Shown: positions 27,001 to 33,000 of the stretch, one piece after another
Layout: every line of letters begins with the position of its first letter
How positions within the stretch are numbered: position 1 is the first letter of the stretch
NCBI GenBank assembly: GCA_913040915.1
Contig: CAJWHW010000020.1
Span: forward strand, 1-39,723
Length of the DNA: 39,723 nt
Direction of reading: 5' to 3'
From: an uncultured Fidelibacterota bacterium
GTDB lineage: Bacteria; Fidelibacterota; Marinisomatia; Marinisomatales; UBA1611
Program-made: the position numbers

Positions 27001-30000
27001 CAATCTTGCCTAAAGTAGGCGATGGTGCGCTATTATTTAGTTCAGGCTTTGCAGTTAGTTTGGTTTGGGTATCTTATGCTTATACTGGTTGGAATTCTGT
27101 TGTGTACATCGCTGGAGAAATCCGAAATCCTAAAATGAATATCTTTCGCTCAATGCTTATCGCAACAGCTTTTGTTATGGTACTTTATATTTTGCTAAAT
27201 TATATTTTTTTATCATCAACTCCAATGGATTCTATGGTAGGGCAGGTTGAAGTTGGTTACATTGTAGGAATTCATATTTTTGGTGAAAATGGTGCCAATC
27301 TAATTGGATTGGGAATTTCAATATTGCTTTTATCTACTGTTAGCAGTTATGTATATATCGGACCAAGAATAATGCAAGTCATGGGAGAAGATCATGATTT
27401 TATTAGTTTTCTAAAAAAGAAAAATGAAATAGGAATACCTGTAAATGCTTTTTGGGTACAATTGTCATTATCATTCATTTTTATCTTAACATCTACTTTT
27501 GAACAAGTCCTTATGTATGCTGGAATTACCCTAATTATCACAACAACTTTAACTGTAATCTCGTTTTTTGTTCTAAGGGTAAAGGAACCTGGTCTTAACC
27601 GCCCCTATCAAGTGTGGGGATATCCATTTACACCCGTGATTTTCATCATTGTAAACTTTTGGATCTTATTTTATTCTTTTAAAGAAACTACTTTTGAAAG
27701 CATTGTGGGTGTTGCTATCATTTTATTTAGTATACTTCTTTATATTTTCCATGAGAAAAAATAGCAATATTAGAAAAACTCCAATTATTCTAGATGGTGC
27801 CATGGGAACTGAATTAATAAATCGCGGCATTGAATGCCCATTACCCCTATGGTCTGCAAATGCCAATATTACTCACCCTAAGATTGTAGAAGAAATTCAT
27901 TTACAATACGTTGAAGCAGGTGCATCTGTAATTACGACTAATACTTTTCGATCTACAAAATGGACCTACTTGAAAGTAGGTTATAATAAATACGATGCAC
28001 AAGAGAAAGCAAAAAGAAGTTTATTTTCGGCAGTGGAATCTGCTCAGAAGGCCAAAAGTGACGGTGTACGAGTCGCGGGTTCAATCACATCTGTTGAAGA
28101 TTGTTACTTACCGGAAAAATTCCCTGGGAAAGCCATAACCGAAGAAACTTATGGTGAAATACTAGAACTTTTCTCTGAATCTGATTTAGATATAATCCTA
28201 TTTGAAACCATGGGCAATATTCATGAAATTAGAATTGGGCTTGATTTATCACAATCCATTCAGATTCCTGTTTGGCTAAGTGTTATCATGAAGGATGATA
28301 AACATATTTTAGATGGTACACCAATAAGAAATGTAATATCTATAATCCCCTCAAATGCAATAAACTGTTTACTTGTTAATTGTAACACCTTGGACATTAC
28401 CATGAAAGCAATCCACTTTATGAATCAAGAATGGGGTGGCTATTGGGGGGCGTATCCAAATTTAGGAGAGTCTGATTACAAAAATGATTATTTTGATGTA
28501 ATAGATACATCTAATTTCTTAGATGGATTTCAATCAATTTTAAAAAATAAACCGGATGTCATCGGTGTCTGCTGCGGCTCCACACCAATGCATATTAATC
28601 AATTAACTAAACTAATTCCTGCTCATGCATTTAAAGATTAAACCTTTTAATGATACTATAAAATCTCTCTATAAGAACCATGGACATTTCCATGAAGGAG
28701 ATGCTGGTATTGATCTCTTTATTGTTGAAAAACAAACAATTAAGGCAGGTGAAACTGCACTAATTCATTTAGGCATAGCTTGTGAGAATACAGAAAATAA
28801 ACCATATCTATTAATGCCAAGATCAAGTATCTTCAAAACACCACTTCGCCAATGTAATTCAATTGGTCTAATTGACGCAGGGTACCGAGGACAGATTATG
28901 GTAGCTGTAGATAATATAAAAGATGATGACTATGTGATAGAGGTGAAACAACGGTTATTTCAGTTGGTTGCCATGGATGGGAGCCCAATCTATTTTGAGT
29001 TAATAGACGAATTGACAGAAACTACGCGTGGTGAAGGAGGCTTTGGATCAACAGGGGGATAAAGCCAATACTTGCCATATTGGCAATATAATAACTATAA
29101 ATACATCAAAATGAATTAAAACAAATATTGGTATAATATTTGCTGAAATAGTAGCGACTTAAGAATACTTTTTAAAACTATATTAAGTGTTGAAAAAATA
29201 TGGAAAATAGCGGTAATATCGCCGCCGCTCTTAATAAATAATCATTTAAAAAAAACATCAACGTATAAAGGAGTTGAACAAATGGGTTTAAACCTTAAGC
29301 CATTGTCAGACCGCGTCGTCGTGGAGCCTGCTAAGGCTGAAGAAAAATCATCGGGTGGAATTATTTTACCTGATACAGCCCAGGAAAAACCTCAGCAAGG
29401 AAAAGTTGTTGCGGTTGGACCAGGAAAAGCCAGCGATGCCGGCACTATTGTAGAAATGACCGTAAAAGCAGGAGATAAGGTTCTTTATGGAAAATATTCC
29501 GGAACTGAAATTGCTCTTGAAGGAACGGACTATGTAATCATGCGCGAAAGCGACATTTTAGCCGTACTATAAGGAGATATAAAATGGCAAAAGACATTGC
29601 ATATTCTCTTGATGCTCGTAGTTCTCTCAAAGCCGGTGTGGACAAATTGGCCAATGCGGTCAAAGTTACTCTTGGACCAAAGGGAAGAAACGTTGTCATT
29701 GAGAAAAAATTCGGTGCACCAACCGTAACCAAAGATGGTGTAACCGTTGCAAAAGAAATTGAGCTAGAGGACAAACTAGAAAACGTAGGTGCTCAAATGG
29801 TTCGTGAAGTTGCTTCCAAAACATCAGATGTTGCTGGTGATGGAACAACAACAGCAACTGTTCTTGCACAATCCATTGTTACAGAAGGGATCAAGAATGT
29901 AACTGCAGGGGCAAACCCTATGGCAATTAAACGTGGAATTGATGCTGCGCGCGATGCTATAGTTGATGCAATTAAGGATCAATCAAAAGATCTTCCTGAT

Positions 30001-33000
30001 TCTCAACAGATTGCTCAGGTAGCAACTATTTCTGCTAATGATGATAGCGAGATTGGAGATAAAATTGCTGAAGCTATGGAAAAAGTGGGTAAAGACGGTG
30101 TCATCACTGTTGAAGAATCAAAAACTGCAGATACATATCTCGAATTTGTAGAAGGAATGCAATTTGATCGCGGATATCTGTCACCCTATTTTGTGACAAA
30201 CTCTGAGTCAATGGATGCAGAAATGGAAGATCCATATATTTTGATCCATGATAAAAAGATCAGTAATATGAAAGACTTGCTTCCCTTACTTGAAAAAGTA
30301 GTTCAAACAGGTAAACCAGTTGTGCTTATTGCAGAAGATATTGAAGGTGAAGCACTCGCAACATTAGTAGTAAATAAGCTTCGTGGTACTTTTAAGGTAT
30401 TAGCTGTAAAAGCACCTGGGTTTGGTGATCGTAGGAAAGCTATGTTGGAAGATATAGCTGTATTAACTGGTGGAACTGTAATATCAGAAGATGCAGGCTA
30501 CAAGTTAGAAAATGCTAATATCGATTATCTTGGTACAGCTAAGCGAGTTGTTTCTGATAAAGATAATACAACTATTGTTGATGGTGGCGGATCTGCAGAT
30601 TCTATAAAAGCAAGAATCAATGAAATCAAAGTCCAAATTGAGAAAACAACTTCTGACTATGACCGTGAGAAACTGCAGGAACGTTTAGCAAAACTATCAG
30701 GTGGTGTTGCTGTGATCAATGTTGGTGCTGCTACAGAAGTAGAAATGAAAGAGAAAAAAGCTCGTGTTGAAGATGCTCTTCATGCAACGCGTGCAGCTGT
30801 TGAAGAAGGGATTGTCCCGGGTGGAGGTGTTGCATTACTTCGATCAGTCAAAGCACTTGATAAGGTGAAAGTTGATGATAATCAACAAGTTGGTGTAGAT
30901 ATCATGCGTAGAGCTTTAGAAGCGCCTGTTCGTCAAATCTGTACGAATTCAGGTGCAGAAGCTTCCATTGTTGTTCAAGCAATCCGTGAGGGTAAGGATG
31001 ATTATGGCTATGACGCAAGGAATGATACTTATGTACAGATGTTTAACGCAGGCATTATTGACCCGGCAAAAGTTGCCAGAGTTGCAGTAGAAAATGCAGC
31101 ATCCATCGCAGGAATGGTATTGACAACAGAAGCTGCTGTTACAGAGATACCTGAAGAGGAGAATGTGCCACCAATGCCTGATCCAGGTATGGGTGGAATG
31201 GGCGGTATGATGTAAGTATCATCAGATCTATTCTGATTCTTTTACTTAAAAAGCCTCTTCGTTAGAAGGGGCTTTTTTTATATAAATTGACTTTGGGAGA
31301 CTGGTTAAGAGTGCCGTAATTTTTTTACTCATGTCTTATAAAAAAAACAACCATAAACGATTTTTTATAATTGATGGCTATGCACTATTATTTCGAGCTC
31401 ACTTTGCATTAATCCGAAATCCGCTTATTACGTCCTATGGATTGCACACCAGTGCATTATTTGGTTTTGCCAATCAAGTATTAAAACTGATTAGATCAGA
31501 AAATCCCGATTATATTGCCTGTGCTTTTGATTCAAAGGAAAAAACCTTTCGCCATGAGATTTATAAAGAATACAAGGCTAATCGTCCAGAAATGCCAATT
31601 GAATTGCAGGAACAACTTCCTCATTTATGGGAAATGTTGGAGTCTATGAATTTACCTGTATTGAAAAAACCTGGTGTAGAAGCAGATGATATTATTGGTA
31701 CTTTGGCTATTCAAGCCGAAAAAGAAGACCTTAAAACTTATATTGTAAGTAATGATAAAGATTTTATGCAGCTTATAAATAATAAAATTTCCCTATTTGC
31801 ACCGGGCACAAGAAAATCTCCCAATCCTGTAATATACAATCCTAAAAAAGTTGAAGAAAAATGGGGTGTCCCACCAGAAAAAATTATTGATTTATTAGCC
31901 CTTATGGGAGACAGTTCAGATAATGTACCGGGTGTAACAGGTGTAGGTGAAAAAACAGCTGTTAAATTAATAAAAGAATATGGTTCATTGGAAGGGGCAT
32001 TAGAAAATGTAGATAAAGTAACCAATAAACGTGTTCATACAGGATTAAAAGAAGGTGTCAAAAATGCAAAGCTCAGTAAAGAATTAGTTACCATATTGAC
32101 AAATGTTGAATTGGCTTCTTCTGTAATGGATTTATTTTCGAGGGATATGAATATTGAAGCCATATCCAAAAAATTCAGTGAACTTGAATTTCATGCATTA
32201 ATCAAACAATTTGTTAATAATTCAAAAAAAGAGACCTTTCAGAGACAGGAAGAATTGAAAAAGGATTATAAAACGATTTTATCTTCAAATGAATTAAATC
32301 AGCTTGTTAAGGATTTATCTAATTCTGAACTTATTTCAATGGATTTAGAAACTACTTCAGTTCAACCTCTTTTGGCTGATATTGTAGGTCTAAGTTTTTC
32401 AATCAAAGCTGATTCAGGTTGGTATGTACCTATTGAATACCTTGAAAAAGAGCAATCTATCTTTGGTGATGATGATTTAAATATCGTTTTAGGAAAACTA
32501 AAACCAATCTTTGAAAACAATTCTATTAAAAAAGCAGGACAAAATATTAAATATGATGCGTTGATATTAAAACGGTATGGTATTGATTTAAATGGAATCA
32601 AGTTTGACACAATGATTGCTGCCCATTTATTAAATCCAAGCGCTCGGTCATATAAATTGGACACATTGTCCTTGGAATATTTAAACCATGAAATGATACC
32701 TATAGAAGAATTAATAGGTAAGGGAAAAAATCAAATTACTATGGATCAAGTACCGATGGAAAAGGCTTCGAAATATGCCATAGAGGATGCAGATATTGTC
32801 TTTCAATTAACACACTTATTTAATTCAAAATTAAAAGAGCAGGAATTATTTGAATATTTTTCAAATATAGAAATACCACTATTACCAGTTTTAATGGAAA
32901 TGGAACTTAATGGTACTTACGTGGATGCTAAGTTTTTAAAAAGTATGTCAAATAGATTAAAAGAAAAATTAGAATTACTCATTAATGATATTAAGCAATT

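Follow-up and report, generated by a model that had tools for sequence, protein, structure and literature searches.

Comparison among related genomes indicates that groESL, dnaK, lon, and hsp20 constitute a protein quality control regulon whose promoters are predicted to be read by sigma54 polymerase. The label "heat shock" would apply to this putative regulon by gene content. The overall explanation that we favor, with a probability of roughly 0.7, is that an activator encoded next to lptE controls this sigma54 chaperone regulon, into which groESL would have been recruited repeatedly. The window considered here is the whole 39,723-nucleotide stretch of DNA that carries groESL. Its source genome, whose protein names indicate Marinimicrobia/Fidelibacterota, is designated G000, and the terms host family and host order refer to those of G000.

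The groES promoter region and the four-gene regulon

The gene designated groES (positions 29282 to 29572 of the window, plus strand; 96 amino acids) was named by sequence likeness and an earlier label, and it has relatives across the host order. It is preceded by a ribosome-binding site, AAGGAG (29268 to 29273, plus strand), and followed by groEL (29584 to 31215, plus strand; 543 amino acids) and then by a terminator-like hairpin with a T run, read from the sequence (31248 to 31279, plus strand). The upstream neighbor of groES is a dUTPase gene (28625 to 29062, plus strand; PF00692), and its 3' end is visible 5' of groES in most of the host-order loci examined.

The genome-wide survey's note had reported a sigma54 box and a palindrome upstream of groES, and both were confirmed. 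The box, TGGTAT-N5-TTGC (29129 to 29143, plus strand), has the -24 GG and -12 GC ten bases apart that are expected of a sigma54 promoter and predicts a start at about 29155. The strong putative activator site, TGCCA-TAT-TGGCA (29073 to 29085), lies 56 bp upstream of the box, start to start, with its center at about -76; in the host-family groES loci the strong site is 55 to 58 bp from the box. A degenerate second site with the core CA-AAA-TG (29104 to 29116) is found 25 bp upstream of the box, centered at about -45, and its core is kept at the 25-bp offset in most host-family loci, as judged by eye. Because its matrix score is low (1.8 in G000), this second site is regarded only as putative. 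Box and site together preceded groES in all 40 host-family loci, with none in the antisense control, counts that are in-sample except for G000. When the 219-bp intergenic stretch was shuffled 100,000 times, the site appeared 26 times and the box 27 times, but never both at once.

A sigma70-type promoter (29190 to 29228, plus strand), with a -35 element, TTGAAA, at 29190, a -10 element, TAATAT, at 29214, and a conserved C/G-rich motif behind it, appears to have been retained. The RNA contigs of two studies begin between the two predicted starts (near 29155 and 29226), at 29168 and 29184; contigs cannot show starts. RNA-library contigs cover the part of groEL examined in 4 of 4 runs; the RNA contigs cover neither the strong site nor dut and are uninformative there.

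The claim that the four genes rank highest in G000 was upheld with box and site matrices built from 173 promoters in related genomes, G000 itself being excluded from the training set. The top 4 of 497 G000 candidates were the promoters of dnaK (contig C13, position 10330; score, 50.5), hsp20 (C24, 30394; 41.3), lon (C29, 8631; 35.7), and groES (32.8). The fifth candidate scored 26.6, and the best reversed-genome control scored 28.3. The bare palindrome is not specific, with eight exact copies in G000, and only the groES and hsp20 copies have a sigma54 box behind them. A blind scan for site plus box in 233 host-order genomes yielded 37 matches in 35 genomes and none in the reversed control. When 30 of these matches were fetched, 26 were found by BLAST to precede groES/groEL, hsp20, lon, or dnaK; 2 more were recognizable at contig ends, and 2 were unrelated. 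Across the host order, box and site were present at 45 of 49 dnaK loci, 46 of 49 lon loci, and 43 of 44 hsp20 loci, largely in-sample, and the corresponding antisense controls gave 0 for dnaK, 0 for lon, and 1 for hsp20. Each promoter carries one or two copies of the 13-bp site, in which the distal half, TGYCA, is strong and the proximal half is weaker. The C of the -12 element is often replaced by T or A and is kept at just 58 of 177 promoters; at dnaK, lon, and hsp20 of G000 it is T.

No further members were found in G000 among htpG, trxA, clpC, clpP, hslV, hflK, ftsH, and rpoN, and the grpE-dnaJ loci scanned lacked a convincing box (best score, 9.6). G000 has rpoN on contig C7, which presumably encodes a region I-like N terminus, and two true sigma54 activators. 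A search with an RpoD-like protein as the query recovered one RpoD-like and three ECF-like sigma factors and no sigma32-like gene in the 85% complete assembly.

Site geometry and the candidate activator

The 55- to 57-bp spacing given by the survey holds for groES and lon in the host family but not for dnaK (25 plus 55 bp) or hsp20 (46 plus 88 bp). Site-to-box distances of 25, 36, 46, 56, 67, 77, and 88 bp correspond to one face of the helix (25 + n x 10.4 bp). The phase at 10.4 bp had an R of 0.89 for the 249 training sites, and in held-out orders, with sites chosen at a uniform threshold, R was 0.80 over 44 sites against a null maximum of 0.45. Separately placed groES modules share this phase (24, 25, 25, 25, 55, and 55 bp, and 36, 36, and 47 bp). 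The palindrome is neither specific to the family nor fixed at 55 to 57 bp, because the site recurs throughout the phylum and in Bacteroidota at helix-phased distances.

The candidate enhancer-binding protein is encoded by a single-copy gene (C21, 21267 to 22484) next to lptE, and the identity of the neighbor as LptE was confirmed in G000. The protein has an AAA+ domain (PF00158; E value, 1e-70) and a Fis-type helix-turn-helix (PF02954; residues 355 to 395) but no sensor domain. The helix-turn-helix is invariant in 39 of 39 orthologs, with the recognition helix SERTLYRKI in all 39, and ERTLYRKI is present in 30 of 30 more. The loop of the GAFTGA type reads GSFTGA, or GAYTDA in family f10, and A-to-S and F-to-Y variants occur among the validated activators in the accessible part of PMC3162934. 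In a structural model, an isolated heptad helix (residues 280 to 307) is predicted between low-confidence linkers, and the orthologs have the heptad pattern and a linker of 41 to 83 amino acids. Orthologs from both phyla formed one clade in a quick tree (SH-aLRT, 97). A fold search returned known activator AAA+ domains only, and an atlas search returned unnamed helix-turn-helix clusters, mostly from Bacteroidota. Against the PspF family of NCBIfam the protein scored 290.9, below the cutoff of 443.55, and no displayed family reached its cutoff.

The proposal that this protein is the likely activator was supported by elimination. Five f10 genomes (about 1 Mb; 95 to 99% complete) have rpoN and the lptE-adjacent activator only, and these genomes have box and site at dnaK (5/5), hsp20 (5/5), lon (3/5), and groES (3/5). 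In the approximately 1-Mb genomes, intergenic sigma54 boxes were found mainly at these chaperone and protease genes. These results strongly suggest that the lptE-adjacent protein is the activator of the predicted promoters. Because the protein is nearly universal in the phylum (44 of 45 genomes), co-occurrence and co-absence are uninformative. In G000, the sequences preceding the activator gene, galE, and uvrB yielded neither site nor box, and thus there was no sign of autoregulation; the best box score upstream of the activator gene in 30 outside orthologs was at most 10. Control of these promoters by a receiver-type activator of G000 (C12, 16417 to 17850) is hardly credible. Although that protein has the canonical GAFTGA loop, it sits in a pilus-type gene cluster, the site is missing from pilin-like sigma54 promoters, and its absence from genomes that retain the regulon largely excludes it.

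The elimination points to an activator but does not say which protein binds the palindrome. The palindrome might be bound by another conserved protein, such as a repressor or a DNA-bending protein, with the activator acting from solution or from elsewhere, but we consider this distinctly unlikely. One motif serves distances from 25 to 88 bp, and in the recruitment of groES it is moved as a unit with the box; the near-invariant activator helix is found in two phyla with the same site. The inner core of the palindrome, YCA-N3-TGR, which we take to resemble the NtrC site, also counts against a separate binding protein. In favor of such a protein is the proximity of many sites. At 25 to 26 or 45 to 47 bp, 100 of the 249 sites have centers at about -45 and -66, nearer than the at least 70 bp from the start reported for NtrC, and therefore a site at -45 could equally block or bend; sites at -45 would also abut the polymerase footprint. 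In addition, 11 orthologs carry A for S in the recognition helix, and this variant showed no clear covariation with the site over 18 loci.

If the lptE-adjacent protein is the activator, its dimers would bind the palindromes, and a tether of about 47 residues would allow the ATPase ring to reach sigma54 from -45 to -76 with little looping of the DNA. Such an arrangement would explain the strict helical phase. More speculatively, the sensor-less activator might be kept inactive in trans, the simplest candidates being the chaperones or Lon, whose synthesis it induces.

HrcA, CIRCE, and the control of groESL

The reported family-wide loss of HrcA was borne out. HrcA was present in 0 of 53 host-family genomes and was absent from G000 as well, the gene being cleanly deleted. 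It was detected in 128 of 141 genomes in 14 other families, yet in 0 of 38 genomes of f10. The CIRCE operator (consensus from the accessible text of PMC545781) was found at 0 of 40 host-family groES loci, compared with 43 of 52 loci outside the family, and was not found in G000 at three or fewer mismatches. Thus, the part of the survey's account in which CIRCE was lost stands. However, the sigma54 promoter was not swapped in, because the sigma70 promoter that CIRCE covers persists in recognizable form at 20 of 40 host-family loci. The same pattern is present at 28 of 39 loci of the CIRCE-type families, with 0 matches in the reverse complement and shuffle maxima of 1 and 2. In other families CIRCE lies directly against this promoter; the host family has lost it. 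Addition of the sigma54 module beside the sigma70 promoter would provide groESL with both a basal and an activator-driven promoter.

The survey counted sigma54 promoters at 0 of 10 groES loci outside the host family, but the module was present at 9 of 52 such loci. In genus g24, 6 of 8 genomes keep hrcA and CIRCE and add the groES module. In two distant genomes, G265 and G328, a sigma54 box lies upstream of CIRCE, on the same side as in the host family. These genomes make gain followed by loss an observed route, and recruitment of groESL needs no prior loss of HrcA. Beyond the host order, all 15 genomes that lack HrcA and gave a strong GroES match had box and site, and all 7 genomes with HrcA had CIRCE.

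Recruitment of groESL after the loss of HrcA is only one possible order in the host family, all of whose members show both changes. It is possible, although we doubt it, that the host family first lost hrcA and afterwards drew groESL into the regulon as a substitute peculiar to the family. The complete coincidence of the two changes would fit this sequence, as would the nesting of the host family among CIRCE lineages in the one quick single-gene tree from which the history is read. In family f10, too, loss first would fit, with hrcA absent from 38 of 38 genomes, the module in only 3 of 5, and neither CIRCE nor the module at groES in the other 2 of 5. However, the g24 genomes recruited groES with hrcA and CIRCE intact, the two distant genomes have box and CIRCE together, and the host family offers no intermediate.

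The box upstream of CIRCE in G265 and G328 would also fit an ancestral dual promoter, in which the sigma54 module at groES accompanied CIRCE, was kept by the host family, and was lost from CIRCE-only relatives. In other orders and in Bacteroidota, too, groES often carries the module. However, the box is absent from 36 of 36 groES loci of ten other host-order families and from 3 of 9 f9 loci, and a host family nested among box-less families would require many losses, which makes this history quite unlikely.

Instead, the comparisons suggest that the sigma54 circuit is old and shared with Bacteroidota and that groESL was taken over in several lineages, most of them HrcA-less. The genes dnaK, lon, and hsp20 would have been in the regulon earlier than groESL. 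The hrcA gene, in the order ftsX-hrcA-grpE-dnaJ, would be old in the phylum and repeatedly deleted, and groESL was probably added to the sigma54 regulon on several occasions, with the module placed upstream of the sigma70 promoter in the host family but on its downstream side in f9 and f10.

Relation to known systems

A scan of GTDB gave 43 matches named as Bacteroidota, 24 of them at 25 or 26 bp, and 21 of these 24 precede homologs of htpG, hsp20, clpB, groES, or dnaK. The control in the HrcA search, B. thetaiotaomicron, had no HrcA match. In the accessible part of a study of Flavobacterium psychrophilum (Guerin et al. 2021, PMC9723704), the proximal half-site lies at about 25 bp in four of the six rows of mapped starts, as judged by eye, and the -12 is relaxed in five. 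The chaperone sigma54 promoters there are described as induced by blood agar, salt, plasma, and freshwater; heat is not named in that part.

It is rather unlikely that the circuit is constitutive, with an always-active, sensor-less activator ensuring a housekeeping supply of chaperones and no stress switch. The lack of a sensor domain or of an identified partner would suit such a role, as would the high Flavobacterium transcript values across the conditions shown in the accessible part of that study. However, the published promoters in the same part vary with condition, the regulon includes hsp20 and, elsewhere, clpB, a basal sigma70 promoter is kept beside the sigma54 promoter at groES, and the search with the RpoD-like query found no sigma32-like gene in the 85% complete G000 assembly. 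Tentatively, and with less confidence than in the regulon itself, the circuit might represent a third, ancient way of controlling bacterial heat-shock genes, common to Marinisomatota and Bacteroidota, in which chaperones titrate a sensor-less ATPase activator with a leucine zipper-like dimer helix, as in eukaryotic heat-shock factor. A flexible tether would replace the DNA loop, with sites as close as -45, and the circuit would be interchangeable with HrcA at groESL.

For Bacteroidota and Marinisomatota, these results provide a testable candidate for the activator of chaperone genes and for its binding site. The site geometry departs from that of the textbook looped enhancer, and the approximately 1-Mb genomes retain rpoN with the lptE-adjacent protein as the sole activator. 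Repressor and sigma54 activator have exchanged control of groESL repeatedly, and the intermediates still living make this a clear example of a rewired regulon. The literature search, with subscription journals and bioRxiv supplements out of reach, found no publication on the palindrome, its phasing, or the activator.

Sigma54 at chaperone genes has already been published for Flavobacterium, which tempers the novelty. The F. psychrophilum study (PMC9723704) places sigma54 (SM4) promoters at groES, lon, dnaK, grpE, htpG, and clpB, largely the same genes as in G000, with the same relaxed -12 and proximal half-site at about 25 bp. The accessible part of that study names no upstream site and leaves the activator open among three candidates. 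It describes a different phylum, in which HrcA/CIRCE coexists with sigma54 control, whereas the G000 regulon is without grpE-dnaJ and htpG. A matrix survey (PMC12316311) predicted sigma54 promoters at GroES/EL, IbpA, DnaK, and proteases in Bacteroidota and Planctomycetota; in its accessible text the term "marinisomat" occurs 0 times, and no activator site, activator, or HrcA exchange is given. HrcA/CIRCE is a negative control of a sigma70 promoter, in contrast to the sigma54 module at host-family groES.

At glnA, NtrC acts from positions roughly 90 and 140 bp upstream, and at least 70 bp is needed according to the accessible part of PMC7408454. Like the G000 activator, NtrC combines AAA+ and Fis-type domains with paired palindromes, but it has a receiver domain, whereas the G000 activator is sensor-less, with putative sites centered from -45 to -108 at a fixed phase. 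PspF is a sensor-less activator that is inhibited by PspA. The G000 activator resembles PspF in lacking an N-terminal regulatory domain and in its association with a stress regulon, but differs in its additional heptad helix, its long linker, its other targets, and the absence of an identified inhibitor. Sigma54 activators also reach heat-shock genes in Myxococcus, with HsfA/HsfB at lonD, and in Bradyrhizobium, with NifA at groESL3, but these are sensor-controlled proteins that act at single operons rather than sensor-less regulators of the core chaperone set.

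Sigma54 promoters of groES, dnaK, hsp20, and lon

The stretch between the dUTPase gene and groES in the window (contig C20) contains a perfect palindrome of the form TGYCA-N3-TGRCA (29073-29085) and, 56 bp from it, a sigma54 box, the -24/-12 element (29129-29143). The pair, here called the module, was not recovered in any of 100,000 shuffles of the groES upstream stretch, and the genome encodes rpoN and two true enhancer-binding proteins. RNA contigs from two studies begin at 29168 and 29184, 3' of the predicted sigma54 start and 5' of the sigma70 -10 element; contigs cannot show starts, and these provide a weak hint of expression at groES. 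The search of the genome for RpoD-like sigma factors found a single one, a short protein (335 aa; window 3292-4299).

The genome-wide survey's note had proposed a sigma54 chaperone regulon sharing this palindrome. Box and site matrices were trained on 173 promoters of relatives, with the genome under study left out, and that genome was then scanned. Among 497 candidates, dnaK, hsp20, lon, and groES ranked first to fourth, and the fifth scored below the best reversed-genome control. The bare site occurs eight times in the genome; thus, the signal resides in the site-box pair rather than in the site alone. Searching 233 genomes of the order for an exact site-plus-box pattern yielded 37 matches, spread over 35 genomes; the reversed control yielded none. 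Thirty of these matches were fetched: 26 were upstream of groES/groEL, hsp20, lon, or dnaK by BLAST, two were the same loci truncated at contig ends, and two were unrelated. A slightly looser pattern gave 45 matches in 43 of 276 phylum genomes (control, 0); for 13 such loci from other classes the downstream gene was dnaK in five, a ClpB-like gene (labeled by eye) in seven, and another gene in one. These ranks and the empty controls bear out the proposed regulon.

At fixed thresholds, box and site preceded dnaK in 19/19 family loci and 26/30 other loci of the order, lon in 20/20 and 26/29, and hsp20 in 18/18 and 25/26, with antisense totals of 0, 0, and 1, respectively. These counts come from 50 chosen genomes plus the genome under study, with three short loci dropped, and from the same loci that trained the matrices. 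The dnaK, lon, and hsp20 regulon is old. Scans of the grpE-dnaJ, htpG, and Clp loci for box and site indicated that these genes are not members here.

CIRCE and the sigma54 module at groES

HrcA, the repressor that acts at the CIRCE operator, was absent from all 53 family genomes and all 38 genomes of family f10 and present in 128 of the 141 others. Across the phylum, 14 of 15 loci keep the order ftsX-hrcA-grpE-dnaJ. The hrcA losses are deletions, because ftsX is directly followed by grpE both in the family (gap of 47 to 112 bp, 16/16 loci) and in f10, where the two genes abut (4/4 loci). The grpE gene was not found in the genome under study, though present in 16/16 family genomes, most likely because of an assembly gap.

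All 40 family groES loci (two short loci dropped) carried the module and no CIRCE; the module precedes the old sigma70 promoter, which is still found in 20 of them. Among 52 loci outside the family, from families other than f3, f4, and f15, CIRCE was found in 43 and the module in nine, six in f9 and three of five in f10. Two f10 genomes had groES with neither element. At L078 and L081 (genomes G050 and G041), hrcA was absent and groES lacked CIRCE and module alike; groESL is apparently unregulated in some streamlined genomes such as these. In other orders, box and site were found in 15/15 HrcA-less genomes with a strong GroES match and CIRCE in 7/7 genomes with HrcA, two of which also had the box. 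Neither arrangement was seen at six weak GroES matches (about 50% identity); a further locus was too short, and GroES had no match in one genome.

A quick activator tree nests the family among CIRCE lineages, so a gain of the module at groES is the simpler reading. The earlier proposal that groESL was recruited after HrcA loss agrees with such a gain, but recruitment does not require that loss: six f9 genomes, in which the module is inserted downstream of the sigma70 promoter, still have hrcA as well as a near-perfect CIRCE. The gain at groES may have come before or after the loss of hrcA.

A candidate activator next to lptE

The gene at C21:21267-22484 precedes lptE and encodes a protein with only AAA+, lid, and HTH_8 domains, which reaches no NCBIfam cut-off. 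In f10, five genomes (about 1 Mb, 95-99% complete) encode rpoN and, as their sole strong PF00158 match, the ortholog of this protein; they have box and site at dnaK (5/5), hsp20 (5/5), lon (3/5), and groES (3/5). Because sigma54 requires such an activator, according to the available text of PMC9723704, and these five genomes have only this one, the ortholog is the activator there by elimination. We place the probability that the lptE-adjacent protein activates the regulon at about 0.85.

Orthologs from nine Bacteroidota genomes and the Marinisomatota proteins form one clade (SH-aLRT 97; 72 rows) in a tree from which 17 close family rows, 14 proteins lacking a Walker-A match, and three loci lacking a called frame were omitted. 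All of 39 orthologs share the recognition helix SERTLYRKI, which occurs in none of the other activators compared; A replaces S in 11 of 30 further orthologs. The protein probably binds the palindrome. A conserved helix (residues 280-307) with hydrophobic residues at heptad spacing is modeled between two low-confidence linkers, the second of 41-83 residues, and from this model we infer that the helix may dimerize. Activation is predicted, at roughly even odds, to proceed via a protein tether with little DNA looping; that stress would release the activator from chaperone or Lon control is a more tentative proposal.

The sigma54-contact loop, GSFTGA in the family, is GAYTDA in f10 and in part of the f13 orthologs (L143-L147, L547, L549, L555); this loop might go with the relaxed -12 element. 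Each of the five f30 genomes checked has the activator gene on the dnaK strand, about 5 kb upstream of dnaK (L631, L634, L636, L639, and L644 with L662, L665, and L676-L678).

The second activator of the genome under study was rejected as a candidate: it is part of a pilus-type cluster, and the sigma54 promoters of that cluster do not have the site. Three tandem pilin-like genes (C12:26156, 27174, and 28187), each preceded by a strict sigma54 box but no palindrome and close to this receiver-type activator (C12:16417-17850), make up a second sigma54 regulon.

Spacing, distribution, and comparison with known systems

With distances unconstrained during matrix training, the 249 sites fell at 25-26 bp (62), 45-47 (38), 54-58 (95), 65-68 (15), 85-89 (28), and elsewhere (11). 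Their phase at 10.4 bp gave R = 0.89. In a held-out test on other orders, 32 of 47 loci had the box, and their 44 sites gave R = 0.80 versus a null maximum of 0.45. Neither set of counts is independent, because orthologous promoters share history. Stronger evidence than raw counts is the use of one helix face by four promoters unrelated to each other and by three groES modules that were placed separately. With the T before GG taken by convention as -26, site centers are at -45, -66, -76, and -108. The -12 base is C in just 58 of 177 promoters.

The regulon is real, but the survey's note drew it too narrowly, since the module extends across the phylum and to Bacteroidota chaperone genes. A GTDB scan for site plus box returned at least 120 stretches. 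Among the 80 matches listed, which were analyzed, 43 were Bacteroidota-named (37 intergenic), 24 of them at 25-26 bp; 21 of those 24 were upstream of homologs of the genome's hsp20, clpC/B, groES, dnaK, or the gene we take to be htpG. The other 37 listed included 25 within reading frames and three upstream of dnaK. This site and box also occur at Poribacteria dnaK (L334, L359), where their spacing of 52-53 bp is off phase; no activator-clade member was found among the loci read in one Poribacteria genome.

Chaperone genes of F. psychrophilum have mapped sigma54 promoters, and the available text leaves their activator open (PMC9723704); in the portion available, such promoters are also predicted for Bacteroidota and Planctomycetota (PMC12316311). 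A literature search covering few subscription journals found nothing on the site, phase, activator, or HrcA exchange. In six rows of mapped Flavobacterium starts judged by eye (PMC9723704, supplement 3), the -12 element is relaxed in five, as in the promoters here, and a proximal half-site lies about 25 bp away in four, the distal half falling mostly beyond the printed stretch. In contrast to NtrC, which needs at least 70 bp according to the available part of a review (PMC7408454), sites here are centered as near as -45. The analysis shows a real sigma54 chaperone regulon with a well-supported putative activator, and what distinguishes it from known sigma54 chaperone promoters is its phased, promoter-proximal sites together with that candidate.
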